This document shows positions 566 through 17,049 of a stretch of 32,000 bases of DNA, one piece after another. Positions within the stretch are counted from its first letter, which is position 1. Each line of letters starts with the position of its first letter. The stretch is from contig NC_008340.1 of NCBI RefSeq assembly GCF_000014785.1, forward strand, positions 2,670,001 to 2,702,000, read 5' to 3'. The position numbers and the translations under genes were made by a program. The notes beneath the pieces were generated by a model, which worked only from the letters and a program-made list of their open reading frames with translations, did not search any database and was not told the origin of the DNA. The DNA is from Alkalilimnicola ehrlichii MLHE-1 (GTDB lineage Bacteria > Pseudomonadota > Gammaproteobacteria > Nitrococcales > Halorhodospiraceae).

Positions 566-638
566 GGCAACGACGGCCCAGCGAGGCGATAATCATTCAT
601 GGCCCCGCCCCACTCGCGGGCCGGCAGAAAAGGACAGC

Positions 639-2450: not shown

Positions 2451-2453
2451 GCC

Positions 2454-3449
2454 ATGCTCCACCTGGTCACCCGCGCCGACTGTGATCACACCGCGCGCCG
2501 CTTCCTGTCGGCGGCGGGCCGCCGCCTGCGCGGGGTGCGCTTGCTGCACTATGAAACGCTGCTGCGGCGCCGGCGCGCCCCGTTGGGCCATTACATCTTC
2601 ACCGATTACGACCGGCTGACCGGCGCCGACGTGGACGCGGTGATCGCCCTGGCCGACGCGCTGGCGGCGCGCCGGCCGGACCTGCGCCTGCTCAACCACC
2701 CGCGCCGGGTGCTCGAGCGGGTGCCCCTGCTCTGCCGGCTGGAGGCGCTGGGGCGGAACGATTTCGGCGTGGTGCGGCTGGACACCGGGGCCCGGCCCCG
2801 GCGCTACCCGGTGTTCATCCGCAGTGAGGACGGCTGCGGCGGCCCGGAGACGGGGCTGATCCACGACGAGGCCGAGTTCGATGCCGCGCTGCGCGAGCTG
2901 GACCGCCGCGGGCTGACGCTGAAGCGGCGGATCGCCGTGGGCTTTTGCGCCGAACCCGACGCGCAGGGGCGCTATCGCAAGTACGGCGCGATGAACATCG
3001 GCGGGCGCATCATCCCGCAGCACCTCCATTGCAGCACGGACTGGAACGTGAAGTGGGGCCAGACCCGCTACCAGGCGGCGCTGGCGGCCGAGGAGGTGGA
3101 CTATCTGCGCGATAACCCCCACCGGGAACAGTTGCTGGAGATCTTCCGCATCGCCGGCATCGATTACGGGCGCATCGACTACGGCTTCGCCCGCGGCCGA
3201 CTGCAGACTTACGAGATCAACACCAACCCGGCCCTGCCGCGCTTTACCAGCCGCCATGGGCTGCGCGCCGGCCGCCACGACCTGATCCGGCCGGCGATGA
3301 TCGAGGCCTTCCAGGCCCTGGACGATCCGCCGGTGCCCCGGGGCCGGGTGCGCTTCCGCTGGGCGGACGACGGCGGGCCGAGCCTCTCCGCGCTGCGGCG
3401 CTCGATCCTCTACCGCCGGCTGCGCCAGCTCTACCACCGCTGGCTGTAG
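2454..3449 (+). CDS. ATP-grasp-like protein, paralog A (paralog of 11475..12446)
   Basis: ATG is 3 nt after the ABC stop codon. C-terminal block GIDYGRIDYGF…YEINTNP resembles the ATP-grasp Mg/ATP-binding E-x-N region. It aligns by eye with the second copy over most of its length. Confidence 0.55.
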   Translation: MLHLVTRADCDHTARRFLSAAGRRLRGVRLLHYETLLRRRRAPLGHYIFTDYDRLTGADVDAVIALADALAARRPDLRLLNHPRRVLERVPLLCRLEALGRNDFGVVRLDTGARPRRYPVFIRSEDGCGGPETGLIHDEAEFDAALRELDRRGLTLKRRIAVGFCAEPDAQGRYRKYGAMNIGGRIIPQHLHCSTDWNVKWGQTRYQAALAAEEVDYLRDNPHREQLLEIFRIAGIDYGRIDYGFARGRLQTYEINTNPALPRFTSRHGLRAGRHDLIRPAMIEAFQALDDPPVPRGRVRFRWADDGGPSLSALRRSILYRRLRQLYHRWL

Positions 3450-3496
3450 CGGGCGACGGGCGACCGTGCGCCCGGCCCGGGGGTGGACTAGGGTGA

Positions 3497-4897
3497 ATGG
3501 ATGACCACACCGCCCCAGGAGGGAGCATGCGCCGTCCAGACGAGGGCACCCTTGCCCGTATCGCCGAGGCCCTGGCATTCACGCCCACGGCAGCCTACTC
3601 GGCCCCCCACGATTACCCGCACGCCGCGAACACCTTCGAGCCGGCGCCCCGGCTGGCCCGGGAGCGGGTGGACGCGGACGTCTACCGACTCTATGCCCAT
3701 GTGCCCTTCTGCAACTACGCCTGCTCCTTCTGCTGCTACGCCAAGAAAGTGGGTGTGGAGCGCGAGCAGATGGCGCGCTACGTGGCGACCCTGAAGCGGG
3801 AGCTGGAGTGGATTCCCGAAGGCACCCCGGTGAACCAGTTCTTTATCGGCGGCGGCACCCCCACGGCGCTGCCCGCCGACCTGCTTGATGAACTACTGGG
3901 CGCCATCGCCGGGCGGATGCCCTACCACGGCGACCCGGTGCACACGGTGGAGGCCTCGCCGGAGTCCATCAGCGACGCCCATCTGGCGGTGTTGCAGCGC
4001 CACGGGGTGCGGCGGGTGAGCATGGGGGTGCAGAGCCTGGATGATGAGGTGCTGGATTCGGTACGCCGCAGCCACGGGCCGGATCTGGCGCTGGAGACCT
4101 GCCGGCGGATTATCGATGCCGGCCTGATCCTCAACATCGATCTGATATACGGCCTGCCGGGCCAGACCCACGCCGGCTTCCGGCGCGATTTCCAGCGGGT
4201 GGCGGACGCCGGGGTGCACGCGGTGACCGCCTACAACCTGCGCCTGAATGAACGCACCCCGGTATCCCGGGCCCTGAGCCCGGGGGAGCGGTTCGACATC
4301 GCCGGGCTGATGGGGTGGCGGGCCTTCGTCCGTGACACCGCCGCCGAGTTCGGCTTCTCCCAGACCCGCTGGCATACCTTCAAGCGCCTGGACACCATCG
4401 CCGCCCGCCACCAGTGGCTGCCCACCGCCGGGGCGGACATGCGGGGCCACCAGTTCGGCATCGGCATGAGCGCCCGTTCGTCGCTGGGCCACAACGTCTA
4501 CCGCAACCACCACAATCTGGAAACCTACATGGCGCGGGTGCGGGACGGCGAAAGCCCGGTGCAGGAGGTGATCCGCCTGGGGCCGCAGGACCTGCGCACC
4601 CAATTCATCGCCCGCAGCCTGGGCGACGGCCAGGTGCTGTCCAAGGCCCGCTACGCCGAGGTGTTCGGCAACGCCATCGAGGCCGACCACGGCGAGACGC
4701 TGGCCCGGTTGGCCGCCGGCGGGCTGTTGGCCGACACCGAATCCTCGGTCAGCCTCACCGAGGACGGCCGCCTGTTGCACGACCTGGTCACCCTCTCCTT
4801 CTACCCCGGGCCGGCCCGGCAGCGGCTGCTGCAGCGGCTGGACACCTTCCAACTCACCGATCTGAGTGACCGCCGGCCCCGGCCAGCCCTTCAATAA
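3497..4897 (+). CDS. HemN-like radical SAM enzyme (coproporphyrinogen dehydrogenase / class C methyltransferase family)
   Basis: CxxxCxxC motif in VPFCNYACSFCCY and HemN-type FFIGGGTP motif. An alternative start at ATG 3527 is preceded by AGGAGG. Confidence 0.85.
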   Translation: MDDHTAPGGSMRRPDEGTLARIAEALAFTPTAAYSAPHDYPHAANTFEPAPRLARERVDADVYRLYAHVPFCNYACSFCCYAKKVGVEREQMARYVATLKRELEWIPEGTPVNQFFIGGGTPTALPADLLDELLGAIAGRMPYHGDPVHTVEASPESISDAHLAVLQRHGVRRVSMGVQSLDDEVLDSVRRSHGPDLALETCRRIIDAGLILNIDLIYGLPGQTHAGFRRDFQRVADAGVHAVTAYNLRLNERTPVSRALSPGERFDIAGLMGWRAFVRDTAAEFGFSQTRWHTFKRLDTIAARHQWLPTAGADMRGHQFGIGMSARSSLGHNVYRNHHNLETYMARVRDGESPVQEVIRLGPQDLRTQFIARSLGDGQVLSKARYAEVFGNAIEADHGETLARLAAGGLLADTESSVSLTEDGRLLHDLVTLSFYPGPARQRLLQRLDTFQLTDLSDRRPRPALQ

Positions 4898-6044
4898 AGC
4901 GCCGGGCACCGCGGGCCCCGTCCAGATCGACGCCGGGGTCCGCGGGCGGCGCGTCCCGCAGCGCCCGCAGCTCATCGGCCACTGCCGCCACCGAGAAGGC
5001 CTCCGGGCGAAGCAGCCGCGCCAGCCCCCGTGCCTGCAGCCGTTCCGCCCGGCGTAACTGGTCGGACATGGCGGTATTGGGGACCAGTAGGGCCGGCCGG
5101 CGAAGCTGCAGCAACTGAGCACAGGTGTTGTAGCCGGCACAACTGATGGACAGCGCCGCCCCGCGCAGCCAGGCGCTGTACGCTGGGCCGAAGGGGTGCA
5201 ACGACAGCGCCGGCTGCCCCGCCACTGCGCGCGCCAGGGCCGGGTCCGGCGGGCCCAGGCCGCTGAACAGCGCCAGCGGCAGATCATCCAGGCCGGCCCG
5301 ACGACGGATGGCCGGCCAGTGCGCCGCCAGCCGGGCGAGCAGCGCCGCGGCGTCGCGCCCGCCGCCGATGCTGGCCACGGCGTAGGGCGACGGACCGGCA
5401 GTGGCGCCGGCCGCCCCTGCCGGCGCATCCGGGGCCAGGTCCGGACCTGGTGGGACCAGCCCGGTATGGCCCACCGACAGGCGGATGCGGCCGGCGGCCG
5501 GAAAGGCCTCCTCCAGCCGGCACAGGCCGGGGTCGGCGTGGACCATCACGGCGTCGAACCACTGGTGCAGCCGCGCCAGCACCTCCCGGACGTAGTCGCC
5601 GGCCGGGACTGGCTCGTGGCGGGTCTGCAGCGGGATATCCCGCACCGAGCAGACGGCGAGCAGGGCCGGGTTGCGCCGGCGGGCGGCCGCCAGCAGCCCG
5701 GTGACCTCCGCCCCCAGGCCCCACTTGCTGAAGGGGTAGTGCTCGACGATGACCACGTCCGGGGCCAAGCGGGCCACCGCGCCGGCCAGCCGCCGGGCGC
5801 GCTCCGGCCAGACAGCGGCGGCGGGCCTGCCGTCCAGGGTCTCCAGCCGGCCCTCCCGGCGCCGGAGGCGGGGCAGTGCCAGCAGCCGTCCGCCACCGGG
5901 GTCGGCGCCGGGAATGGACCGACCGCCGTCGCTGAGCCAGACCGTGTGGTGGCGCGCCAGCTCCCGGGTCAGCGCGAGGCCGCGCATGTAGTGGCCGACC
6001 CCGCTGAGGTGCTGGCAGTGGAAGAGGATGCGCAGGCGGGTCAC
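4854..6044 (-). CDS. GT-B fold glycosyltransferase (MurG/GT28-like C-terminus; resembles COG4671-type predicted glycosyltransferases)
   Basis: N-terminus ILFHCQHLSGVGHYMR and C-terminal CAGYNTCAQLL…PALLVP pattern. GTG start lies 10 nt after the Rieske stop codon. Confidence 0.65.
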   Translation of the reverse strand: MTRLRILFHCQHLSGVGHYMRGLALTRELARHHTVWLSDGGRSIPGADPGGGRLLALPRLRRREGRLETLDGRPAAAVWPERARRLAGAVARLAPDVVIVEHYPFSKWGLGAEVTGLLAAARRRNPALLAVCSVRDIPLQTRHEPVPAGDYVREVLARLHQWFDAVMVHADPGLCRLEEAFPAAGRIRLSVGHTGLVPPGPDLAPDAPAGAAGATAGPSPYAVASIGGGRDAAALLARLAAHWPAIRRRAGLDDLPLALFSGLGPPDPALARAVAGQPALSLHPFGPAYSAWLRGAALSISCAGYNTCAQLLQLRRPALLVPNTAMSDQLRRAERLQARGLARLLRPEAFSVAAVADELRALRDAPPADPGVDLDGARGARRFIEGLAGAGGHSDR

Positions 6045-6054
6045 CGGGTCGCGC

Positions 6055-7287
6055 TCAGGGCTGGAGCAGCGCGATGATCTGCTCTTTGAGCGGGCTGTAG
6101 CGCACGTGGCTCATCTCGATGGCCTCGCGCAGCAGCCGGCGGCCGTCGCCGAGCTTGTTCCGCTCTTGGGCGAAGCGGATGACCCGGTTTTCCGCCTCAT
6201 CGCGGATCACGCCCATGGGATCCAGCCCGTCGGCCACCCGCTGCGCCTGCTCCAGCAGCAGGCGCCGGTAGAGCACGATGCCCTTGTCCGAGGCCACCAG
6301 CCGCTCGCGGGTGCGGTCGGCGATGGCGCCCTGACTCACCCAGACCATGATGTCGCCGCCATCGACGAAGTCGACGATGTAGTCGCCGTGCTCATCCCGC
6401 CAGGGCACCGGGTAAAGGGGGATCTCGCGCTGGGGCGGCGCGCTGCGGCCCTCCGGCGGGAGGTAGCAGGCATACCAGTAGTGGCGGGTGTGGGTGTCAT
6501 CCATCGGCACGCGGAACTGGAAGCGGTGCTGGTTGCCGGTGCCCACCCTTAAGGCGCAGGGGAAGATCAGCGGATGGCCGGTGCGCCAGTCTTCGTCCTC
6601 CTCGCTGCCCCCCGCCACGATCCGCCGCTTGATGATGCCGTACTCAAAGACATCGAACCCGATGCGCTGGTGGTGCTTAAGGTACTGGGTGGGGGCGGGC
6701 TCGCCGCGCTCGCTGCGCACCCCGGCCAGGTGGTGGCCGTGGAGCCACTCCACGTGCGCCGGGTCGACGCTGTTCTCCATGATCTGCAGCCAATTGCAGG
6801 GCAACTCGGCGACACCGATGTCGCGCAGGGCATCGTCCTGCAGCAGCAGGTCGTAGCGGGGCAGCAACGGCGCGGGATCGGGCCCGATGTAGGCAAACAC
6901 CAGGCCGCCCAGCTCCTGGACCGGGAAACCCCGGGTGGCCGCGCGCCGGAGCAGCGCCGGCTTCTGTCGCGGCTCGGCGGGCATGGCCAGGCAATGGCCG
7001 TGGTGGTCGAACTTCCAGCCGTGGTAGGGGCAGGCGATGCCCTCCTCATCCACGTGGCCGCACCGCAGGGAGGCGCCGCGGTGGGTGCAGTGCTCGTCGA
7101 TCAGCCCCAGCCCGCCGGCCGGCGTGCGGAAGAGCACCAGGTCCTCGCCCAGCAGCCGGCGGGCCAGGGCCCGGCCGGGACGCACCTCCACGCTGGCGGC
7201 CAGCGGCCACCAGTAGCGGCGCAGCAGCTCGCCCATGGTCGTGCCGGGGCCGATGCGGGTGAGGGTCTCCTGGCGCTCCGGGGTCAT
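6055..7287 (-). CDS. Rieske [2Fe-2S] non-heme iron oxygenase, alpha-subunit type
   Basis: Rieske motif CTHRG…(17)…CPYHGW. Mononuclear iron motif ENSVDPAHVEWLH (E-x3-D-x2-H-x4-H). The ATG overlaps the methyltransferase stop codon (ATGA). Confidence 0.85.
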   Translation of the reverse strand: MTPERQETLTRIGPGTTMGELLRRYWWPLAASVEVRPGRALARRLLGEDLVLFRTPAGGLGLIDEHCTHRGASLRCGHVDEEGIACPYHGWKFDHHGHCLAMPAEPRQKPALLRRAATRGFPVQELGGLVFAYIGPDPAPLLPRYDLLLQDDALRDIGVAELPCNWLQIMENSVDPAHVEWLHGHHLAGVRSERGEPAPTQYLKHHQRIGFDVFEYGIIKRRIVAGGSEEDEDWRTGHPLIFPCALRVGTGNQHRFQFRVPMDDTHTRHYWYACYLPPEGRSAPPQREIPLYPVPWRDEHGDYIVDFVDGGDIMVWVSQGAIADRTRERLVASDKGIVLYRRLLLEQAQRVADGLDPMGVIRDEAENRVIRFAQERNKLGDGRRLLREAIEMSHVRYSPLKEQIIALLQP

Positions 7288-8027
7288 GGCCGCCCCTGCC
7301 CCCGCGCGCCGCTCTCCGGCGCGCCACCGGCTTCGGCACCCGGGAAGCGCCGGCGCAGCCCCTCCGGGTCACCGGGTCGACCCTGGACCAGGGTGAGCCC
7401 GCTGGCCACCGGCAGGGTGAACAGCTCCAGCCCGGGATCGGCGCGCAGGGCCGCCATCAAGTCGCAGACGCTGTGCTGGTAGGCCCGGTCCTCGCCGTAG
7501 AAGGTGCTGGTCCGGCGTACGGTGCTGTCGTGGAACAGGGTGATGGCGCCGGTATCCAGCTTGGGGAGGAAGGCCAGGTAGTCGTAACAGGCCTGTGCCG
7601 CGGTGTGCAGTCCGTCCACCATCAGCAGCCCCACCGCGCCCAGTCCGGCGTAGGCCGGGTCGGCCGCGAAGGACTGCGTGGTGTGGCGGTGGTGGCGCAC
7701 GTTGGGTGTGCCCAGGGCGTCGAAATGGGCCTCCACGGCGCCGGGATCGGCCCAGAAGCCGTCGGCGAAGGAGGGGTCGATGAAGTGGACCTCGCCGCGC
7801 TCCTGGTTGTCGTTCAGCGCGCGGGCGATGACGCTGGGCGCGAAGCCCCGGTAGGACCCGATGACCACCGCCCGCTCCGGCCTAAGGATGCGGCCCAGGG
7901 CGTAGTAGAGCCAGCCCAGGCCCAGGTTGTGGTCGGCCAGGCGCTGGCCGTGCCCCATGCGCAGCAGATCCGGCTGCTCGAACAGCCGGCCGATGAAGCC
8001 ATCCAGGGTGGTGGCGGGGTCGGTCAT
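7284..8027 (-). CDS. Probable class I SAM-dependent methyltransferase (CmcI/TylF-like)
   Basis: VVIGSYRGFAPS glycine-rich motif at the position expected for a SAM-binding loop. Size is about 250 aa. Translationally coupled to the Rieske gene. Family call is by recall. Confidence 0.5.
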   Translation of the reverse strand: MTDPATTLDGFIGRLFEQPDLLRMGHGQRLADHNLGLGWLYYALGRILRPERAVVIGSYRGFAPSVIARALNDNQERGEVHFIDPSFADGFWADPGAVEAHFDALGTPNVRHHRHTTQSFAADPAYAGLGAVGLLMVDGLHTAAQACYDYLAFLPKLDTGAITLFHDSTVRRTSTFYGEDRAYQHSVCDLMAALRADPGLELFTLPVASGLTLVQGRPGDPEGLRRRFPGAEAGGAPESGARGQGRP

Positions 8028-8136
8028 CTAGGGTGTTTTCCCGGCATTGGCGGTGAATGGGTTGGAATCAGGCCTTCTAGGACTAATCGACCATGGGCCC
8101 ACCGCTGTCAAGCGGTTGCGGCCCGCCACCCGCGGC

Positions 8137-10188
8137 TCAGTGGGCGTCATCGCCCGGGCCCGGGTCGTCCGGCGGCGCGTAGACGGCCTGCGCCCGGGTG
8201 TAGAACAGCGGGTCCCAGACGCCGTGCTCCGGGGGGCCGATGGCGGAGGCCTTCCAGCCGCCGAAGGGTGCCCGCGGGTCGATGGCCGCGCCGGCGCCGT
8301 TGAGTCGCAGGAGACCGGCCTGCGCCTGGGCCAGGAAGCGCCGCTGCACCGCCGGATCGTTACTGTACAGGGTCGCGGCCAGCCCCTGGGGCACGCCGTT
8401 GAGCCGGTCCAGCGCCTCGTCGAGGTCCGCCACCGGCACCAGCACCACCACCGGGCCGAAGCTCTCCTGCTGCATGCACTCGGCGTCCGGGGGCAGGCCG
8501 GTGAGCACAGTGGGGGCGTACCAGTTGCCCTGGGCCCAAGCCGGCGGCACCCGGCCGCCGCAGAGCACATTGGCGCCCGCGGCGCGGGCGCGGGCGACGA
8601 TGCCCTCGATCCGCGCCTGCGCGGCCCGGGAGACCAGCGGACCGACAACGGTGTCCGGCGCCTCCGGCCGGCCCGGGCGCAGCGCCTGCACCCGGGCCAG
8701 GAAAGCCTCGGTGAAGCGGTCCAGCACCGAGGAGGCCACCAACAGGCGGCGCACCGCGGTGCAGCGCTGGCCGGCGAAGCTGAAGGCGGCCCGGGCGAGT
8801 TCCCCGGCGGCCCGTTCCGGGTCGGCGTCGGCCATGACCAGGGCGGCGTTGTTGCCGCCCAGCTCCGCCTGCAGGGGCGTGCCGTGCAGCGCGCAGGCGG
8901 CCGCCACCTGGCGCCCGGCGGTGATGGAGCCGGTAAAGCTCACCGCCTGCACCCGGGCATCGGCGGCCAGGGTGTCGCCGGTGGCCGCCCCGCCCTGCAC
9001 CAGGTTCAGCACCCCCGGGGGCAGGCCGGCGTCCAGACCGGTCTGCATCAGCATCCGCGCCAGTTCCGGGGCCTCCGGCGCCGGCTTCCAGACCACGCTG
9101 TTGCCCCAGCGCAGGGCCGGTCCGATCTTGCCCAGGGGCAGCGCCAGCGGGTTGTTCCAGGGGGTGATGGCGGCCACCACCCCCCGGGGCCGGTGGCGCA
9201 CGCTCACCCCCGGCGCCAGGGCCCCGGGCGGGGTCGGTGCCATGGGCTCGAGGCTGGTGGCCAGCAGGGCCAGGGCGTAGTCGAACTCCGCCCCGGCCTC
9301 GAGGGAGGGCTTGCCCACCTCCCGGATCAATGCGGCCACCAGTTCGTGGCGCTGCTGTTGAAGCCGCGCTTCCCAGGCCTTCAGCATGGCAATGCGCTGG
9401 CTGTCCGGCAGTGCCGCCCAGCCCGCCCCGGCCGCCCGGGCGGCCTCCACCGCCGCGCCGACCAGGGGGGCGTCGGCGGCGCCGGTCCGGCTGAGGATCC
9501 GCCGGTGGTCACAGGGGTCGTGGCGGGTGAGCTGCTCCGGCGCGGCCGCCCGATGCCATTGCCCGGCGATGCAGGCGGCGGGCTGCAGGTCGCGCCCGGG
9601 TGTCGGCCTGCGCGTTGCCGCCCCGCCGTCATCCGGCTCACCCAGGCGCGCCCGGATGTCCGCCGTGGTCAGCGCGGCGCAGGCCCGATCCGCTAGGTGC
9701 CTCAGCGCCAGGCGGGCGTGCAGCGGGTCGTAGGAGGCCACCGCATCCACCGCCAGCCAGACCTGGAAACCGGCCTGGTAGGCGTCCAGCACGGTGGCCT
9801 GGACACAGGCATGGGTGTGCAGGCCACTGACGACCACTGTGTCCACGCCCTGCTCGCCCAGCCACGCCGCGGTCCCGGCCCCGCCGAAAGCACTGTAGTA
9901 GGGCTTGGCCAGGACGGCTTCACCCGGTGCCTCGGCCAGGGCCGGCGGTGGGGCCGCCCCGGGGGTGCCGCCGACGCAGGCCCAGTGGGCCCGGCGCTGC
10001 CAGTGGGGCATGCGGTTATGGCCGTCCGCGGCGATAAGGGTGCGGACATGGCACACCGGCAGGCTGCGGCGACGGAAGCCGTCCAGCAGCGTCCGGGCCT
10101 GCCGGATGGCGGCCCCGGCCTCGGCCGCATCAACCCCCCGGTCCAGGTAGTCCTGTTGCCAGTCCACCAACAACAAGGCGGCACGCAT
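8137..10188 (-). CDS. Fusion protein: N-terminal isochorismatase-family cysteine hydrolase plus C-terminal aldehyde dehydrogenase
   Basis: N-terminus has LLLVDWQQDY and VSGLHTHACVQATVLDA, typical of the isochorismatase fold. C-terminus has ALDH motifs ELGGNNAALV and FSFAGQRCTAV (catalytic Glu and Cys). I prefer ATG 10188, 2 nt after the upstream stop codon, over the track start at 10233. Confidence 0.8.
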   Translation of the reverse strand: MRAALLLVDWQQDYLDRGVDAAEAGAAIRQARTLLDGFRRRSLPVCHVRTLIAADGHNRMPHWQRRAHWACVGGTPGAAPPPALAEAPGEAVLAKPYYSAFGGAGTAAWLGEQGVDTVVVSGLHTHACVQATVLDAYQAGFQVWLAVDAVASYDPLHARLALRHLADRACAALTTADIRARLGEPDDGGAATRRPTPGRDLQPAACIAGQWHRAAAPEQLTRHDPCDHRRILSRTGAADAPLVGAAVEAARAAGAGWAALPDSQRIAMLKAWEARLQQQRHELVAALIREVGKPSLEAGAEFDYALALLATSLEPMAPTPPGALAPGVSVRHRPRGVVAAITPWNNPLALPLGKIGPALRWGNSVVWKPAPEAPELARMLMQTGLDAGLPPGVLNLVQGGAATGDTLAADARVQAVSFTGSITAGRQVAAACALHGTPLQAELGGNNAALVMADADPERAAGELARAAFSFAGQRCTAVRRLLVASSVLDRFTEAFLARVQALRPGRPEAPDTVVGPLVSRAAQARIEGIVARARAAGANVLCGGRVPPAWAQGNWYAPTVLTGLPPDAECMQQESFGPVVVLVPVADLDEALDRLNGVPQGLAATLYSNDPAVQRRFLAQAQAGLLRLNGAGAAIDPRAPFGGWKASAIGPPEHGVWDPLFYTRAQAVYAPPDDPGPGDDAH

Positions 10189-10190
10189 GG

Positions 10191-11339
10191 TCAGGCCCGC
10201 GCCCCCTGCAGTACTTCGGTCAACGACGCGCACAGGGCCTGGCCCATGGCCCGGGTGCCCACCGCGGTGGGCTGCGCGCCCTGAATATCGGCGGTGCGCA
10301 CGCCCCGGGCGAGGGTCCGGGCGATGGCCGTCTCCAGGGCATCGGCCAGTGCCGGCAGGCGGAAACTCTCGCGCAGCATCATGGCCAGCGAGCAGACCTG
10401 GCCGATGGGATTGGCCCGGTCCCGGCCGGCCAGGTCCCAGGCGGCACCGTGGGCGGTCTGGTAGACCGCCTGGCCGGCGGCGCCGTAGTTGCCGGACCAG
10501 GACATGCCCCGCGAGCCCATGAGCAGGCTGCCGCAGTCGCCCAGGATATCGCCGAACATGTTGGGGCAGACGATGACGTCGAACTGCCGGGGGTCGGCGA
10601 TGAGCTGGTAGGCGGCGTTGTCCACCTCCAGGGTCCGGCAGCGCACGGCGCCGTGCTCGCCGGCGACCGCGGTCAGGGCGTCGTGCCAGAGGGCGCTGAT
10701 GGCAGGCACGCCGCCCGGTTTGGTGACAACGACCAGGTCACCGCGCCGCTGCCCGGCCAAGCGGAGGGCCGTGCGCAGGATGCGCTCCACCTCGTCGGCC
10801 CGGTAGCGGCAGACCTGGTAGGCGCTGCGCGCCGCACCCTCGCCTTCACTGCCCCACTCGCCACAGTAGAGCCCGCTGGCATTCTCGCGCACGATGAGGA
10901 CGTCCGCCGAGCGGGCGGCCTCCGGGCGCAGCACGCCGGCATCAGCCAGGGCGGGCCAGTGGCGCAGCGGGATCAGCTTGCAGTAGAGGTCGAAGTGCCG
11001 GCGCAGGTCGTAGACGAAGCGCCCGCCCCCGGGGCCACAGAGCACCGCCCCGCCCTGAGCGAAGACCTGAGCGCAGAAGTCGCGCACCTCCGGGGTCAAG
11101 CCGCGACCAGTGAGGCGCTCGGCCTGCCGGCCGATGGGCCCGCCGGTGCGCACCTCGAAGCGCTGGCCGGTGGCCTCGCCGAGGAGCCGCAACAGCGAAA
11201 GAGCAACGTCGATGACTTCCGGGCCGACGCCCTCCCCCGGCAGCACCCCGACCAGAAAGGCCTCACCGCGCTCCGTGCCCGTGCCACGGGGCGGTGCATG
11301 GTCGGTGCCGGGGTGCGACGGGCAGGCTTCGGGGTGCAC
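10191..11339 (-). CDS. Isocitrate/isopropylmalate dehydrogenase family oxidative decarboxylase (IPMDH/tartrate-DH-like)
   Basis: VLPGEGVGPEV N-terminal motif and family signature NMFGDILGDCGSLLMGSRGM. The GTG start at 11339 gives an extension of about 20 aa, so the start is uncertain. Confidence 0.8.
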   Translation of the reverse strand: MHPEACPSHPGTDHAPPRGTGTERGEAFLVGVLPGEGVGPEVIDVALSLLRLLGEATGQRFEVRTGGPIGRQAERLTGRGLTPEVRDFCAQVFAQGGAVLCGPGGGRFVYDLRRHFDLYCKLIPLRHWPALADAGVLRPEAARSADVLIVRENASGLYCGEWGSEGEGAARSAYQVCRYRADEVERILRTALRLAGQRRGDLVVVTKPGGVPAISALWHDALTAVAGEHGAVRCRTLEVDNAAYQLIADPRQFDVIVCPNMFGDILGDCGSLLMGSRGMSWSGNYGAAGQAVYQTAHGAAWDLAGRDRANPIGQVCSLAMMLRESFRLPALADALETAIARTLARGVRTADIQGAQPTAVGTRAMGQALCASLTEVLQGARA

Positions 11340-11474
11340 GGGCTGCGCTTCTCCTCGAGGCAGTGGCGTTCGCGGTGACGGTGGCCCGGCGCCGGAGCGC
11401 CCGCCGTTGTCGAAAGCATAGTCGGGCGGGGACCGGGGTAAAGCGCCCGCGCCGGGCTTGGGGGCCGCGCCCGT

Positions 11475-12446
11475 TCAGGGCAGACGCGGGGTGCGCCGCC
11501 ACTCCCGGCCACGCCAGAGGTCGGCGAGACGGTCACGCAGCGAGCGCGGGTCGTGCAACGGCACCGGCCGGCCCGAGGCGGGCCCGTCGATCTCCGCCAT
11601 GGCCGCGATGAGCTGCCGCTGGGCGCTGCGGTAGCTGTCGAGACGAATGGGATAGGGGTGGGTGCGCAGCCGCCCCACGTGGGGGTTGGTGTTGATCTCA
11701 TAGACCTGGGGCCGGCCGCCGATTAGGGCGAAGTCGGCCCGGCCGTAATCGATATGACCGGTCTCGAAGGCGGGCGCGAGTGCATCGGCAAAGGGATTGT
11801 CGTTGACCAGCCGGAGCTCATCCTCGTACAGCGCCTGGCCGGCGATGCCGTTCTGGCCGTATTTCGCCGCCCAGTGATCCTGGTGGGCGCACAGCGCCGG
11901 GACGATTCGCCCGCCCACCCGGTAAGCGGCCAGCTTGCGGTAGAGCCCGTCGGCCACCGGCTCGGCGTGGAACTGGACGACCATCAGCTCGCGGCGGGGT
12001 ATCCCCCGGTCGATCGCCTCGGCCACCGCCTGCGCCAGGGACTCGGGGGTGTCCAGGCACCCGGTCAACGGGCCGCGGTGGGCGGACTCGGTGCGCAGGA
12101 AGACGGGGTACGCCCCGTCCGGCGGCGTCTCATCGACGCGCCAGACACCGAAGTCGTTGAACCGCCGGGCATGCAGATCGCGCAGCAGTTCGAAGCGTGA
12201 GCGCACCCGTGCCGGGTCGTTGAGCACGCACGCGCCGGCCTCGCGCAGTTGCCGGTGGATCCGCCCGGCCATCTCCAGGTCCCAGAAGTTGAGGCGGTCG
12301 AAATCGGTGAAGATGTAGGTGGCACGAGGCAGCCGCCGCCGGCGGAACAGCCGGTGGTAGGACATGACCCGGAAGTCGAAGGCATCGGATTGCTGCAGCG
12401 GGCGGTGGGTGTGCGCGTGCGCCTGGGTGCTGAACAGGACAATCAT
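11475..12446 (-). CDS. ATP-grasp-like protein, paralog B
   Basis: Shares blocks with 2454..3449: YIFTD[YF]DRL, NDFGV, YPVF[IL]R, AEP…YRK…GGRI[IV]P, IDYGR.D, YEINTNP. Its start overlaps the HExxH gene stop codon by 4 nt. Confidence 0.55.
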   Translation of the reverse strand: MIVLFSTQAHAHTHRPLQQSDAFDFRVMSYHRLFRRRRLPRATYIFTDFDRLNFWDLEMAGRIHRQLREAGACVLNDPARVRSRFELLRDLHARRFNDFGVWRVDETPPDGAYPVFLRTESAHRGPLTGCLDTPESLAQAVAEAIDRGIPRRELMVVQFHAEPVADGLYRKLAAYRVGGRIVPALCAHQDHWAAKYGQNGIAGQALYEDELRLVNDNPFADALAPAFETGHIDYGRADFALIGGRPQVYEINTNPHVGRLRTHPYPIRLDSYRSAQRQLIAAMAEIDGPASGRPVPLHDPRSLRDRLADLWRGREWRRTPRLP

Positions 12447-13438
12447 CCGGTGGCGTGGTCCATGTACGCTTTGGCGTTGGCCATGAGGGCGCGCCCGTGC
12501 CGGCTCAGAAGGCCGTGGGCGGCGACCACCTCGTGGCCGGCGCGGAAGTTGGCGGCGTCCTCCGCCATGGCCTGGCGCGCACCGGCCCGCTCGGCCTCGT
12601 CCAGCAGCCCCGAGTCCAGCAACCGGCCCATGGCCCAGTGCATGCGGGCGGAGACGAAGGTGGCGTGGTAGATGCCGTCCATGGGCCGGGGGTCTTGGCG
12701 CAGCGGCGAGGGGTAGAGCTCCTCGTCATGATTGAGGACCAGCGGGGCCTCGGTGCAGAAGCCGAACAGCAGGCTGTGCGCGCTCTCGTGGGCGATGACC
12801 TCGGCCATGGCAATGCGGTCGGGATGCGCCCCGGCGTTGAGAAACAGCGCCCCCCAGAGCTGAAAGTGGGAGCCGCCGTGGAACTCGCCGGCGTCATGGT
12901 CGCCACCGGCCACGCCGACCACGTGGTGGACGATGGCCTCCACCTCGCCGGCCAGCTCCGGCGCGGCCTGCCGCAGCAGCCCAAGGCCCTCGTGGTAGCG
13001 CTGCACGAAGGCCGTCTCCAGTTCCGCCGGCGGCGGATGCAGCGTCAGCCCCGTCGGCATCTCCGCCATCATCTTATCCTGGTAGAGGCGACTGGTGGCG
13101 CACGCCGATGGCGGTCGCAGCCCCTCGACCCGCTGGCCATCCGGCAATGGCGGTTCGTTGCCGATCCTCTGAAAGGCGGTCCGGGCCTGCGCCAGGTCGC
13201 CGTCCAGCAGGTCGATGACCAGGTCGTAGTAGCGGCCGAACAGGCTCGGGGCGTGCGCCTGTCCCGTGGCGAGCCGGCTGAGCAGGGGATCCAACGACAG
13301 GTCGGGCAGCGGGGTGTGGGCGTTGAAGCGCTCGAAGACGTACCCGAGGCTGGCGCCCAGCTCACGGTGCATGGCCTGATCCAATTGCCCCGCCCGTTCC
13401 GGATCGGGCTCGAACCCATAGTGCACCGTGGCCGTCAC
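12443..13438 (-). CDS. HExxH-motif protein (putative metal-dependent peptide-modifying enzyme, possibly aKG-HExxH / TIGR04267-like)
   Basis: VIAHESAHSLLF motif in a soluble protein with real-protein composition. GTG start with AGGGAG 6 nt upstream. Family membership was not verified. Confidence 0.6.
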   Translation of the reverse strand: MTATVHYGFEPDPERAGQLDQAMHRELGASLGYVFERFNAHTPLPDLSLDPLLSRLATGQAHAPSLFGRYYDLVIDLLDGDLAQARTAFQRIGNEPPLPDGQRVEGLRPPSACATSRLYQDKMMAEMPTGLTLHPPPAELETAFVQRYHEGLGLLRQAAPELAGEVEAIVHHVVGVAGGDHDAGEFHGGSHFQLWGALFLNAGAHPDRIAMAEVIAHESAHSLLFGFCTEAPLVLNHDEELYPSPLRQDPRPMDGIYHATFVSARMHWAMGRLLDSGLLDEAERAGARQAMAEDAANFRAGHEVVAAHGLLSRHGRALMANAKAYMDHATG

Positions 13439-13491
13439 GCGCCACTCCCTTGCTGTTGTTACTCGGTTGTCGCGCTCGGTCCCGCCGGTGG

Positions 13492-13653
13492 TCAGGTGAC
13501 CTTCATGCCCACCTTGCCGCCGACTTTCGCCCCGATGGTGGTGGTCCGGTCGAGTACCTTGTCGCCCACCTTTGCGCCGGTTCTGACGCTGCTGTCGAGC
13601 CGGAAGCCCAGCAGGCGGCGGGCATCCAGATTGATGCCGTCGGTCTTGTCCAT
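13492..13653 (-). CDS. Unlisted small ORF (53 aa), candidate precursor/scaffold peptide: MDKTDGINLDARRLLGFRLDSSVRTGAKVGDKVLDRTTTIGAKVGGKVGMKVT
   Basis: Hand-translated, ATG 13653 to TGA 13492. GAGGGGA (13660-13666) lies 6 nt upstream of the ATG. About 47 of 53 codons end in G or C. Same strand as the HExxH gene and 53 nt upstream of it. Confidence 0.5.
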   Translation of the reverse strand: MDKTDGINLDARRLLGFRLDSSVRTGAKVGDKVLDRTTTIGAKVGGKVGMKVT

Positions 13654-13706
13654 GGTCGATCCCCTCAGGTTACCGGCCGTCCGGCCGGGGAATTGTTATC
13701 AAACCT

Positions 13707-13741
13707 CGCTTCAAGACTAGCCGGCTGCGGGATCAACGCAA
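13707..13741 (-). promoter_or_regulatory. Possible sigma70-like promoter for the small-ORF operon (TTGCGT-16 nt-TAGTCT on the minus strand)
   Basis: Motif match only, in the 170-bp lower-GC divergent intergenic region 13654-13823. -35 at 13736-13741 and -10 at 13714-13719. Confidence 0.2.
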
Positions 13742-13823
13742 GGCAGCGGGGAGGATCAACCTGTACTAATAGGGTAAACCGTCTAGGCTTGCGCAAAAGT
13801 GACAACGCCCAAGGGGATCGGCG

Positions 13824-15023
13824 ATGACGGCGCGCCGCGTGCAACTGCTCAAGGTGGTCTCGGGGCTGGATATCGGGGGGGTGCGTAGCGCAGAGCTCGG
13901 TTTCACCGCCGAGTTGCAGGCGCGGGGGGTCGGCGTTGGCGGCGTAATCGTGACCGGGGGCGCCATGGCCGCCCGTTACGCCCGGCTGTTTGACGGCCAC
14001 TGGCTGCTGGACACCCGTCTGCCCGAGTTCCGAGGCGGACGGTGGGAGCGGCTGCGCCGAACGGTGGTAAACCTGGGGCGCAGCCGGCAGGGCGCCCGGC
14101 GGCTGGCCGGTGACCTTCGCGGGACCCGGTGGGCGTCGGCGGGCACGGTGGTGGCGGTGCGCCATGCGCCGCTGCTGCCTCTGGCCGCGCTGCTGGCCCG
14201 CCGGCTCGACCTCCCGTTGCTCTGGCACATGCCCAACCCGGTCCACGACCGGCTCGGCCGGGCCTATTTCCAGGCCCTGCTGCGTCTGGCCGGCGGCACG
14301 GCGGTGGGCAATAGCCGCTACACCCTGGCCAGCCTCGGCGCCGGCGATGGCCCGGTGATCTATCCCGGCTTCTCCCCCGCCCGGGTGGCCCTCGACGAGA
14401 CCGCCCCCGAGCTGCGGGCGTCGCTGGGCATCCCGGCCGCGGCGCCGGTATTCGCGGTGGTGGCCCGGCTCACCCCGGACAAGGCCACTGACTGGGTGCT
14501 GGCGGCCTTTCTCGATTCGGCGGCCTTTCGCAACGGGGCGCATCTGCTGATCGCCGGCGGCCCGCTGGACTCCCGGTTCGCCCTTGACCTAAGGGCTCAC
14601 GCCGGTGAGGCGGGCGACGGCCGGGTGCACTTTCTCGGCGAGGTCGAGCAGGTGGCGCCGGTTTACCGGGCCGCGGATGTGCTGGTGGCGGGCCGGCGCA
14701 CGGTGGAACCCTTCGGGATCTCGCTGGTGGAGGCCATGGCCTCGGGACTGCCGGTCATCGCCCCGGGCGGCGGGGGGCCGGACGAGGTCGTCACCGACGG
14801 GGTGACCGGGTGGTTGCTGCCGGACCGGGGCGTGGCAGCCTATACCCGGGCGCTGGACCGCGCCTGGTCGGACCGCGCCCGCTGGCCGGTGATGGGTGGG
14901 CAGGCGCGCACCGCCGCCGCGCCGTTCAGCCTGGCGCACCAGGCCGGCCGCTACCTGCAACTGGTGCGGGCGGTGCTGGACCCGGACGGCGACGACCCGG
15001 CGCCCATGGTGAGGGCGCGTTGA
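13824..15023 (+). CDS. Glycosyltransferase family 4 (GT-B, retaining type)
   Basis: EPFGISLVEAMASGLPVIA (E-x7-E motif). Confidence 0.85.
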   Translation: MTARRVQLLKVVSGLDIGGVRSAELGFTAELQARGVGVGGVIVTGGAMAARYARLFDGHWLLDTRLPEFRGGRWERLRRTVVNLGRSRQGARRLAGDLRGTRWASAGTVVAVRHAPLLPLAALLARRLDLPLLWHMPNPVHDRLGRAYFQALLRLAGGTAVGNSRYTLASLGAGDGPVIYPGFSPARVALDETAPELRASLGIPAAAPVFAVVARLTPDKATDWVLAAFLDSAAFRNGAHLLIAGGPLDSRFALDLRAHAGEAGDGRVHFLGEVEQVAPVYRAADVLVAGRRTVEPFGISLVEAMASGLPVIAPGGGGPDEVVTDGVTGWLLPDRGVAAYTRALDRAWSDRARWPVMGGQARTAAAPFSLAHQAGRYLQLVRAVLDPDGDDPAPMVRAR

Positions 15024-15029
15024 AGACCG

Positions 15030-15737
15030 ATGGGGGACGACGTGACGGACAGCATCGCCGTGTTACAGGCCCGGACCACCTCCCGCCGACTGCCCGCCAA
15101 GGTGCTGCTTCCGGTGGGGGGACTGCCGCTGGTGGTGCTGGCCGCCCGGCGCGCGGCGAACACCGGCCGGCGGGTGCTGGTGGCCACCTCCACCGATCCC
15201 TCGGACGACGAGCTGGCGCGGGTGGTGCGCGCGCATGGGCTGGCCTGTGCGCGCGGCAGCCTGGAGGACACCCTGGGGCGGTTCGTCCAGGTGCTGACCG
15301 ATTACGCCGATGACACGCTGGTCTTCCGCCTGACCGCGGACAACGGACTGCCCGACGGGCGCCTGCTGGATGACCTGGCCGACGACCTCCACCGGCGGGA
15401 CCTGGACTACCTGGCCTGCAACGGGGCGCCCTGTGACCTGCCCGACGGTTTCAGTGCCGAGGTGACCCGGCTGCGGCACCTGCGCGCCGCCCACCGCGGG
15501 CCCACCACGCCCTACGACCGCGAGCACGTCACGCCCGCGGTGATCCGCGCCCGGGGACAGGCCTGGTTCACCGGCTACGCCGGTCGCGGGCTGGCGGGCC
15601 AGCGCTGCACCATCGACACCCTGGATGACTACCTGGCCGTCTGCCGGCTGTTTGTGGGCTACGCCGACCCGGTCGGCACGCCAGCGACGCGCCTGCTGGA
15701 GGCCTTGGCCACCCCGGCCCGCGATGCCCATGCCTGA
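15030..15737 (+). CDS. SpsF-like cytidylyltransferase (acylneuraminate/CMP-sugar cytidylyltransferase family)
   Basis: N-terminus IAVLQARTTSRRLPAKVLLPVGGLPLV is typical of the SpsF/COG1861 family. Lies in the same operon as PseG-like and NeuB-like genes. Confidence 0.7.
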   Translation: MGDDVTDSIAVLQARTTSRRLPAKVLLPVGGLPLVVLAARRAANTGRRVLVATSTDPSDDELARVVRAHGLACARGSLEDTLGRFVQVLTDYADDTLVFRLTADNGLPDGRLLDDLADDLHRRDLDYLACNGAPCDLPDGFSAEVTRLRHLRAAHRGPTTPYDREHVTPAVIRARGQAWFTGYAGRGLAGQRCTIDTLDDYLAVCRLFVGYADPVGTPATRLLEALATPARDAHA

Positions 15738-17049
15738 GACCGGATTCACCGCCTACCGGGAACTGGAGCGACGCCTGCAGCGGTGTCACGGGGCGCATTA
15801 TGCGCACTACCCCCACGCCATGATGACCCTAGACCGGGAGTTGCGGAACGTGCTGGTCCAACGCCCCTGGCTGGCCGAGCGCAACCTGGCCCGCTATGCC
15901 CGGCAAGCCCTGGTCCGGGCACTCTATGGCCGGGTGCAGGACCACGCCCTGGCCCGGCACCCGCCCGGACAGGGGCGCCCCACCTGGCTGGTGGAGTTGC
16001 GCAAGTTCCCCGCCCTGCGCCGCGCCCTCGACCGGTCGCGGGATGCCGGGGTGCACTGGGTGCCGATGGGCGAACGGCCACGCTCACCCTGGGCGCTGCT
16101 GCGACCCGAGGCGGTCAGCGTGGATGCCATGATCAGCGGCTATCCCATGAAGCGCTGCTTCGCCCGGCTGCGCCGCCGGGGCGTGACGCCGCTGCTGGAG
16201 GACCCGGCCTTCATGGCCCGGCTGGAGCACCTGGCCCGGGCGGGGCTGGAGAACGCCACCCGGCACCTGCGGGCCATGAACGTGACCGCCGTGATCACCA
16301 CCGGGGACGCCGGGCCCGCCCCGCGCCTGCTCTGTGCGGCGGCACGGCGGCTGGGCATCCCCTACCTGGTGGTCTGCCACGGCTACCTGCAGGACCCCAA
16401 CCTGGTCTCTGTCTGTCCGGTGCATGCGGATGCGCTGCTGGTCTGGTCTGCGGCACAGCAACGGCAGCTGCGGACGGTGTTGCCGCCGGATCAGGCGGAC
16501 CGGGTGCACTACTTCGGCAACCCCTGCGCGGACGGCCGCCGGGGCACCGGGACGGGTGATGCGGTACTGATCGCCCTGGAGCCGCAGGAGGCGATGGCCG
16601 CCGCCCCCCGGCAGGCGGAGCTGCTCTCCCGCCTGGTGACCCAACTGCAGGCAGCGGGCCGGCGGGTGGTGGTGCGCCCCCACCCCAAGAGCCGGGCGTG
16701 CGCGCAGACCCGGCGGCTGATCCAGGACTGGGGCTGCGAGGCCTCCCGGGGCACGCTGGAGCGGGACCTGGACGAAGCGGCTGCGGTGGTGGGCGCCAAC
16801 ACCAGTGTCTTGTTCGAGGCCGCCACCCGGGGGGTTCCCGCCTTCCAGGTGGCCGAACTGGCCCGGCTGACCATCGAGGGCGCCCGGCGCCGGCCGCTGG
16901 CCGAACTGCCGGCGGCCGTGGCGCAGCCGGCGGGCACGGGACCGGACACCGCGCCGCCGCCCGGGGCGGCCGCCTGCGCCCGGGGTCTGATCGAGCTGAT
17001 CCGACACCACGGGGCCCGCGCCCCCGGGGAGCGGGCGGCCCATGGCTGA
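15724..17049 (+). CDS. Hypothetical protein, possibly a GT-B sugar transferase (VVRPHPKS 'HP' motif)
   Basis: In-frame ATG at 15724 (or 15730) overlaps the upstream stop codon; the track start at 15625 lies inside the previous gene. The C-terminal half resembles capsule/sialyl-type transferases only loosely. Confidence 0.35.
   Translation: MPMPETGFTAYRELERRLQRCHGAHYAHYPHAMMTLDRELRNVLVQRPWLAERNLARYARQALVRALYGRVQDHALARHPPGQGRPTWLVELRKFPALRRALDRSRDAGVHWVPMGERPRSPWALLRPEAVSVDAMISGYPMKRCFARLRRRGVTPLLEDPAFMARLEHLARAGLENATRHLRAMNVTAVITTGDAGPAPRLLCAAARRLGIPYLVVCHGYLQDPNLVSVCPVHADALLVWSAAQQRQLRTVLPPDQADRVHYFGNPCADGRRGTGTGDAVLIALEPQEAMAAAPRQAELLSRLVTQLQAAGRRVVVRPHPKSRACAQTRRLIQDWGCEASRGTLERDLDEAAAVVGANTSVLFEAATRGVPAFQVAELARLTIEGARRRPLAELPAAVAQPAGTGPDTAPPPGAAACARGLIELIRHHGARAPGERAAHG

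Follow-up and report, generated by a model that had tools for sequence, protein, structure and literature searches.

An isochorismatase-type cysteine hydrolase fused to an aldehyde dehydrogenase, and its conserved dehydrogenase partner, in Alkalilimnicola ehrlichii MLHE-1 and relatives of the protein

Here I discuss a gene of Alkalilimnicola ehrlichii MLHE-1 that joins an isochorismatase-family hydrolase and an aldehyde dehydrogenase (ALDH) in one polypeptide, and that lies in a 32,000-nucleotide (nt) stretch of contig NC_008340.1 (positions 2,670,001 to 2,702,000; this whole stretch is called the window, and coordinates count from its first letter). Comparison with homologues shows that the gene encodes what is, by its conserved residues, a genuine bifunctional enzyme, a cysteine hydrolase tethered to an NAD(P)+-dependent ALDH, and that the fusion founds an uncharacterised family which, at the level of sequence clustering, comprises at least 112 clusters at 50% identity. 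The gene is also accompanied by a divergent dehydrogenase of the isopropylmalate dehydrogenase (IPMDH) family, here called Iso_dh after its Pfam domain, and I am moderately confident that the three activities are neighbouring steps of one pathway making a carboxylic or 2-oxo acid, with hydrolase and ALDH fused in the bifunctional enzyme. The gene and its parts are as follows.

8137..10188, minus strand: fusion gene, cysteine hydrolase plus linker plus ALDH (open reading frame, Pfam, identity to ABI57701.1, AlphaFold2)
9649..10188, minus strand: N-terminal isochorismatase-family domain, amino acids (aa) 1-180 (PF00857, triad Asp9/Lys95/Cys128)
9559..9648, minus strand: interdomain linker, aa ~181-210 (low conservation, low pLDDT)
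8137..9558, minus strand: C-terminal ALDH domain, aa ~211-683 plus stop (PF00171; Asn345, Glu442, Cys476)

The open reading frame (ORF) runs on the minus strand from an ATG at 10188 to a stop at 8137, giving 683 aa, and its product is 100% identical to ABI57701.1 / WP_011630094.1, which the databases call merely an 'aldehyde dehydrogenase family protein'. Pfam places Isochorismatase at aa 4-176 (E 1.7e-40) and Aldedh at aa 213-669 (E 4.6e-123), both far beyond chance, and all four motifs named in a preliminary description of this DNA, which had proposed a single 683-aa polypeptide with both domains, are present in the continuous frame, namely LLVDWQQDY (Asp9), THACVQAT (Cys128), QAELGGNN (Glu442) and AGQRCTA (Cys476). 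An alternative GTG start at 10233 would give 698 aa and a 43-nt overlap into the Iso_dh gene, and this is the version carried by MetaClust (P0121); the alignments of homologues begin at ATG 10188, not at GTG 10233.

The fusion was followed through 91 loci in which one tblastn alignment spans both domains, reduced to 77 once near-identical ones were dropped, with a median pairwise identity of 43% among these non-redundant loci. Not one of the 91 has a stop or frameshift at the hydrolase-ALDH junction (the nine stops that were flagged are those that end the genes at their C-termini), and the catalytic residues are retained: Asp9, Lys95 and Cys128 of the hydrolase and Asn345, Glu442 and Cys476 of the ALDH are invariant in an alignment of 39 sequences and at least 97% conserved in 71 homologues. 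The preliminary claim that both domains are catalytically intact thus survives, as far as conservation can tell, both of the tests set for it, an interrupted junction and a missing catalytic residue. Both Pfam domains occur in all of the best 120 database homologues (41-85% identity), and more than 120 proteins have the same architecture, while a HMMER search with the hydrolase domain alone gave 112 clusters (50% identity) at E <= 1e-30, and 89 of its best 150 matches are 580-720 aa long, i.e., fused, most of the others being fragments. The source names include Alkalilimnicola, Phycisphaerales, Nitrotoga, Nitrosomonadales, Georgfuchsia, Smithellaceae, Obscuribacterales, Alphaproteobacteria and Rhodothermales. 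A scan of genome contigs with the single protein yielded locus L007 as the sole true fusion among the matches listed, the rest being standalone actinobacterial ALDHs, and a protein search of PLSDB found no plasmid-borne fusion.

The hydrolase domain belongs to the isochorismatase superfamily (PF00857, 139 bits against a cutoff of 27, covering profile positions 2-174 of 175) and carries the Asp-Lys-Cys triad of its cysteine hydrolases. Its closest PDB relatives are 3hu5, NicF 3ot4 (maleamate amidohydrolase), 3eef (a carbamoylsarcosine-amidase relative) and PncA; NicF, the second-best match (E 2e-16), shares fold and triad with N-carbamoylsarcosine amidase (CSHase), RutB, PncA and the fusion, but identities are only ~25-35%, none of the known members carries a fused ALDH, and the best match, 3hu5, is without known function. 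When the query's GLHTHACVQAT is aligned, NicF has GATTSGCVRAS with the Cys present, PhzD has GVYAHVGVLIS with Gly instead, and Cys128 also matches the Cys of PncA 1im5. Because the nucleophilic Cys is kept as in NicF and is Gly in PhzD, the domain is therefore read, on this alignment, as an acyl-thioenzyme (amidase-type) cysteine hydrolase and not a vinyl-ether isochorismatase, and the vinyl ether that the preliminary description had listed among possible substrates is disfavoured. A true isochorismatase would go without the nucleophilic Cys and with chorismate-utilising partners; here the Cys is present, and neither the window nor the recurrent partner clusters yielded a chorismate-binding enzyme. 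Further residues are invariant in a family-specific way (Gln11, Asp13, Arg39, His47, His62, Cys71, Glu90). Nicotinamidase PncA has an Asp/His/His metal site beside the triad; in the alignment to 1im5 the His of 'rHCV' is an insertion relative to the query's 'WACV', and 'DWH' stays unaligned with Asp/His, the alignment of this loop being uncertain.

The ALDH domain is an equally clear member of its superfamily (PF00171, 411.6 bits, profile positions 3-461 of 461), with Asn345, Glu442 and Cys476 aligning with the catalytic Asn/Glu/Cys of 4u3w and 3jz4, and a full-length alignment with 2-aminomuconate semialdehyde and succinate semialdehyde dehydrogenases shows ~32-35% identity. From the general ALDH mechanism, Glu442 suggests a hydrolytic ALDH that releases the free acid. 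None of the named ALDH equivalogs in the 25 NCBIfam families listed, which include 2,5-dioxovalerate dehydrogenase, KGSADH, SSADH, HMSD, BADH and P5CDH, reached its cutoff, the top score being 301.7 bits against 750. In malic semialdehyde dehydrogenase (MSA-DH) the distal carboxylate is held by a pair of arginines, Arg166 and Arg284, the latter six residues before the catalytic Cys (PMC11353897). Against GabD 3jz4, 'FRNAGQTC' becomes 'FSFAGQRC' (Ser470) and 'itRK' becomes 'plGK' (Gly353) in the fusion, so that the Arg pair of succinic and malic semialdehyde dehydrogenases is missing.

Between the domains, aa 181-210 vary in length and are poorly conserved (mean conservation 0.20-0.27, about one third gaps in the 71 homologues). 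An AlphaFold2 model built from the 39-sequence alignment has a mean pLDDT of 90.8 and a pTM of 0.79, and pLDDT falls below 50 only at residues 188-198, which coincide with this variable stretch, and in the C-terminal tail; the model thus suggests that hydrolase and ALDH are joined by a flexible linker of ~30 residues. Foldseek against the PDB, run with the full model, returned matches to the ALDH domain only (~485 aligned columns; TM-score ~0.9 to the ALDH targets, ~0.65 normalised to the query), and since no PDB entry among them spans both domains, there appears to be no solved structure with such an arrangement.

The partner gene stands immediately upstream.

10191..11339, minus strand: divergent IPMDH-family beta-decarboxylating dehydrogenase (PF00180 Iso_dh, E 8.2e-73), 2 nt upstream of the fusion

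The junction reads ...GCC TGA CC ATG CGT..., with a spacer of exactly 2 nt, and elsewhere the Iso_dh end frequently overlaps the fusion start by 4 nt. Of the 58 non-redundant loci with enough upstream DNA, 54 have Iso_dh as the next gene upstream, in the same orientation, and all 20 loci that extend 5 kb or more to either side contain it. Its motif positions, taken from alignments to IPMDH relatives, show in all 58 members the Tyr158, Lys207, metal ligands Asp240/Asp264/Asp268 and substrate Arg113 and Arg151, i.e., it shares with LeuB the Iso_dh fold, the catalytic Tyr and Lys, the three metal Asp and two substrate Arg, and the machinery for oxidative decarboxylation of a beta-hydroxyacid is, on this comparison, intact. 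It differs from LeuB in scoring 237 bits against the leuB equivalog cutoff of 353, in having the Arg of the IPMDH 'NLRP' motif replaced by Thr, Val, Ser or Ile (58/58 sequences), with an invariant Cys120-Lys121 two residues before it, and in reading 'KPGG' for 'KANV'. No LeuA or LeuCD is encoded near the gene, and its substrate, to judge from these residues, is probably not 3-isopropylmalate. The preliminary description had noted an IPMDH-family dehydrogenase 2 nt away; spacing and family were right, but an orthodox IPMDH it is not.

The same description had suggested a three-step module including this neighbour, and here the support is strong, since beyond the adjacency the trio occurs as three genes, as two and as one. 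In locus L102, Iso_dh, hydrolase and ALDH are three separate genes in unchanged order, the hydrolase ending in TGA and the ALDH ATG lying 11 nt before the hydrolase gene end, in another frame and exactly in the linker, and the L102 hydrolase protein was found in a second sample too. The window has two genes. In P0200 (1049 aa) a single chain holds Iso_dh at 27-359, Isochorismatase at 387-546 and Aldedh at 594-1047; two independent samples encode it without a difference, the junction is clean and in frame, and no catalytic residue is missing. This classical Rosetta-stone series of three, two and one genes is strong evidence, of the comparative kind, that the three activities form one evolutionary unit and, with the adjacency of Iso_dh, one functional unit. 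Two further candidates for a triple fusion, P0258 and P0259, were rejected and not counted because in them the Iso_dh match gives way to Arg/Gly/Pro-rich sequence ahead of the hydrolase; they are probably frameshift or gene-calling artefacts of high-GC assemblies, and a caution for automated architecture counts.

What might such a unit do? In the reading I favour, that of neighbouring steps towards an acid, the cysteine hydrolase domain would hydrolyse an amide to unmask an amine or carboxylate, the ALDH domain would turn an aldehyde into a carboxylate, so that a malate-like 2-hydroxy-dicarboxylate results, and the Iso_dh partner would carry out an oxidative decarboxylation to a 2-oxo acid, with hydrolysis, aldehyde oxidation and oxidative decarboxylation making a chemically economical order. 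Ligases, which accompany the module whenever a Rieske oxygenase does not, would then activate the acid, and the fusion would most plausibly keep a reactive aldehyde or amino-aldehyde intermediate from escaping, by analogy with PaaZ. The carnitine route of Acinetobacter and the classical catabolic route of pantothenate, both described below, are chemical precedents for such a sequence. Several observations weigh against parts of this scheme. The gene order with Iso_dh first does not reveal the order of reactions; the hydrolase and ALDH steps need not be consecutive; a predicted flexible linker and a pTM of 0.79 show nothing about a tunnel; the accessory genes vary between loci, so that there may be several end products; without the Arg pair a 'semialdehyde to dicarboxylate' step is not specifically supported; and with one canonical carboxylate-binding Arg missing from Iso_dh, the substrate of that enzyme may, by its residues, be no malate-type dicarboxylate. 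The missing Iso_dh Arg and the missing ALDH pair together warn against assuming ordinary dicarboxylate substrates. Channelling, and hydrolysis ahead of oxidation, as put forward in the preliminary description, are conjectures.

Bifunctional ALDHs are familiar. PaaZ, the oxepin-CoA hydrolase / 3-oxo-5,6-dehydrosuberyl-CoA (CoA, coenzyme A) semialdehyde dehydrogenase, is a bacterial chain with hydrolytic and ALDH domains between which a reactive aldehyde is channelled, and it shows that a hydrolase-ALDH fusion can serve channelling (PMC6739347); it is the best mechanistic analogue. The fusion differs from it in that its hydrolase is N-terminal and of the isochorismatase/cysteine-hydrolase fold, with no CoA chemistry implied. 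In PaaZ the hydrolytic domain is a MaoC-type hydratase, C-terminal, that acts on a CoA thioester. ALDH1L (10-formyl-tetrahydrofolate dehydrogenase), PutA and AdhE likewise fuse an ALDH to an enzyme of a neighbouring step, ALDH1L with an N-terminal hydrolase/transferase domain (PMC12041015), but their partners are a formyltransferase plus peptidyl carrier protein, a proline dehydrogenase and an Fe-dependent alcohol dehydrogenase. Only PF00857 and PF00171 were found in the protein discussed here, and neither a PaaZ-type (MaoC) nor an ALDH1L-type (formyltransferase plus PP-binding) composition. An isochorismatase-ALDH fusion is absent from that 2025 review of ALDH fusion enzymes, in which the word 'isochorismatase' occurs 0 times (PMC12041015), no paper describing the hydrolase-ALDH architecture or the gene set was found in the literature, and NCBIfam holds no model specific to the fusion architecture. 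The domain families and bifunctional ALDHs are already known, and the combination of an isochorismatase-type hydrolase with an ALDH is a so far uncharacterised variant of that class.

The surrounding genes in the window are listed next.

12443..13438, minus strand: aKG-HExxH-type beta-hydroxylase family gene at the head of the operon (TIGR04267, 120 bits against a cutoff of 40)
11475..12446, minus strand: putative ATP-grasp-like ligase, 323 aa, same operon (no Pfam match; UniRef 'ATP-grasp domain-containing protein')
7284..8027, minus strand: S-adenosylmethionine (SAM) methyltransferase, Methyltransf_24 (PF13578, E 1.3e-17; in 7 non-redundant loci and L100)
6055..7287, minus strand: Rieske non-haem iron oxygenase, LigXa_C type (Pfam), the most frequent partner after Iso_dh
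4854..6044, minus strand: GT28/MurG-like glycosyltransferase (PF04101, E 1.1e-06; in 17 loci)
3497..4897, plus strand: HemN/ChuW-like radical SAM enzyme, convergent with the operon (Pfam; NCBIfam STM4012 family, 190 bits against a cutoff of 380)
2454..3449, plus strand: second ATP-grasp-like paralogue, 331 aa (34-38% identity to the copies in L001, L005 and L007, E down to 6e-47)
639-2450, plus strand: ABC exporter, adjacent to the module

All ORFs of the 77 loci were clustered de novo, which showed these genes to recur: Iso_dh in 67 loci, the LigXa_C-type Rieske oxygenase in 30 (usually immediately downstream), a nonribosomal peptide synthetase (NRPS)-type A-T-TE protein in 20, the GT28-like glycosyltransferase in 17, the HemN/ChuW-like radical SAM enzyme in 16 (51-62% identity), a PaaK-like ligase in 10, Methyltransf_24 in 7, and a short AMP-binding enzyme and a PhyH-like protein in 4 each. 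The Rieske partner is 60-69% identical across phyla; the nearest PDB entry to the window's copy is 7fjl, a 'Rieske (2Fe-2S) domain protein' (E 2e-49), which I take to be phthalate dioxygenase. Among the 25 loci flanked by 4 kb or more at either end, 7 have only the Rieske oxygenase, 12 only an adenylating ligase and 6 both, with none lacking both. The window combines Rieske oxygenase, methyltransferase, glycosyltransferase and radical SAM enzyme and has the two ATP-grasp-like paralogues in place of an AMP-binding ligase. ATP-grasp-like homologues adjoin the Iso_dh/fusion pair in L001, L005 and L007 as well. Both window copies carry 'YEINTNP', are without a Pfam or NCBIfam family and flank the module, and from their sequences the pair looks like an unmodelled ligase family. 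An operon in L100, from a genome of 42% GC against 73% in the window, brings together an ATP-grasp gene, the triple fusion, an A-T-TE protein, a Rieske oxygenase (64% identical to the window's) and a methyltransferase. Its A-T-TE-like partner (7633-10080 of that locus, plus strand) has 'GECVAG' at the expected GxSxG site of the thioesterase, which suggests, as a motif reading, a Cys nucleophile in the terminal hydrolase-like domain.

With this company the favoured scheme can be extended: activation would fall to the ATP-grasp-like, NRPS-type A-T-TE and PaaK-like ligases. In the window, the Rieske oxygenase, methyltransferase, glycosyltransferase and radical SAM enzyme would modify the product further, and the neighbouring ABC transporter might carry it out of the cell. 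I propose only tentatively that the trio marks a widespread biosynthetic pathway not yet described, which would occur from Gammaproteobacteria to Planctomycetota, Bacteroidota and Melainabacteria, in which a new acid block passes to ligases and tailoring enzymes and ends as an exported metabolite or glycoconjugate, with the aldehyde channelled by the fusion.

The strongest rival keeps the single pathway but makes the steps non-consecutive, the fusion serving co-expression or stoichiometry only and handing over no intermediate; I consider it rather unlikely. Separate hydrolase and ALDH genes do exist in L102 and are presumably functional, and the linker is long, variable and predicted to be disordered, but the fusion is kept in most members, as the lengths of the 150 best hydrolase-domain matches show, and P0200 adds a further fusion with Iso_dh, such repeated fusion being more typical of coupled steps.

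Next comes the possibility that the trio serves to break down a nutrient, an amide-containing hydroxy-acid or something related, which I regard as improbable. Beta-decarboxylating D-malate dehydrogenase belongs to the IPMDH family, and in catabolism of pantothenate an amidase, an ALDH and dimethylmalate dehydrogenase act along one route (EC 3.5.1.22, 1.1.1.106, 1.2.1.33, 1.1.1.84). The pantothenase protein is described as still awaiting identification (PMC10393543). The same enzyme classes serve the carnitine route of Acinetobacter, in which the Rieske enzyme CntA forms malic semialdehyde, an ALDH converts it to D-malate and a beta-decarboxylating dehydrogenase yields pyruvate, all three encoded together and acting consecutively (PMC11353897), and the A. 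baumannii MSA-DH 8s33 is a clear relative of the ALDH domain (E 3.5e-61; Foldseek rank 46). The carnitine route serves catabolism, involves no amidase domain and is encoded by separate genes, and the Arg166/Arg284 of its MSA-DH are without equivalents in the fusion; the window's Rieske partner, moreover, is distant from CntA (E 3e-7). The companions of the trio are biosynthetic in character (NRPS-type A-T-TE, ATP-grasp, glycosyltransferase, methyltransferase, radical SAM), no transporter or regulator of the catabolic-operon type recurs among them, and the alcohol dehydrogenase that the pantoate step would need is missing. The narrower variant in which the trio would supply the genes still to be assigned in a pantothenate-type route, those for pantothenase, dehydropantoate dehydrogenase and dimethylmalate dehydrogenase, is very improbable.

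Equally hard to credit is a true isochorismatase feeding a siderophore- or phenazine-like aromatic acid pathway in the manner of EntB or PhzD: the Pfam family name, the detectable relationship to PhzD, EntB and VibB (E 1e-9 to 1e-10) and adenylating enzymes and carrier proteins nearby, as with EntE and EntB, speak for it, but the Cys that is Gly in PhzD is invariant here, the nearest relatives are amidase-type, and neither a chorismate-utilising enzyme nor a 2,3-dihydro-DHB (dihydroxybenzoate) dehydrogenase is found in the window or the recurrent partner clusters. That a sequencing or annotation error joined two genes into an artefactual single ORF has a negligible chance, for no support was found (the only artefactual-looking fusions, P0258 and P0259, concern the Iso_dh/hydrolase junction in other metagenomes), the protein derives from a finished 3.28-Mb genome record, and the frame continuous through both domains in 91/91 loci, with the more than 120 database proteins of this architecture, already refutes it.

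Other features of the window stand apart from this argument. The aKG-HExxH gene was not found in any other fusion locus and is specific to the window, and directly upstream of it (13492-13653, minus strand) lies a 53-aa ORF, MDKTDGINLDARRLLGFRLDSSVRTGAKVGDKVLDRTTTIGAKVGGKVGMKVT, with GAGGGG 7 nt before its ATG and repeated GAKVG[DG]KV motifs, which might be a precursor resembling those of ribosomally synthesised and post-translationally modified peptides (RiPPs). It had no significant match in ~100 fetched loci, and a RiPP reading of the two genes was dropped from the core explanation because neither is conserved in other loci. A divergently transcribed sugar cluster follows (13824-19122, plus strand), which comprises a GT4 glycosyltransferase, a cytidylyltransferase of the CTP_transf_3 family, a 474-aa ORF without annotation, a PseG-like protein (107 bits, cutoff 154) and a NeuB-like nonulosonic acid synthase (290 against 400), and a GT61 gene on the opposite strand; a link between the module and this NeuB/cytidylyltransferase cluster was rejected since its genes do not recur in other fusion loci, only L002 having CTP_transf_3. 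A hopanoid link was rejected as well, a squalene-hopene cyclase occurring in the single, metagenomic locus L019 (17068-19122, minus strand), three genes downstream of a block of Rieske, GT28 and radical SAM genes, probably by coincidence.

A 993-aa ORF without a family match (597-3578, minus strand) lies opposite the ABC exporter and the ATP-grasp-like paralogue on the plus strand and is almost certainly an antisense shadow ORF in 73% GC DNA; many other long antisense ORFs occur throughout the window. Between 21000 and 29000 the GC content drops from ~0.73 to 0.58-0.66; this stretch, possibly acquired DNA, encodes a PKD-domain protein of 867 aa (21163-23766, minus strand) along with several ORFs that match no family, and acetate kinase is encoded at 28919-30100 (minus strand). 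A consensus scan of 3300-14000 found no promoter or terminator, and Rfam and tRNA scans of the window were empty, so Rfam gives no riboswitch clue to the metabolite.

PutA, PaaZ, ALDH1L and AdhE are textbook cases of reactive-aldehyde handling, and the present fusion would add an isochorismatase-type cysteine hydrolase as a partner fold. A practical consequence is a correction of annotation, as current names leave the hydrolase domain unmentioned and point to 'isopropylmalate dehydrogenase' for a gene product other than LeuB. The family has many members from widely separated lineages, and its series of three-, two- and one-gene forms, together with the fixed Iso_dh partner, makes an unusually clear and testable functional unit, a good lead for enzyme discovery and a tractable entry to an uncharacterised pathway in cultured organisms such as A. 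ehrlichii.

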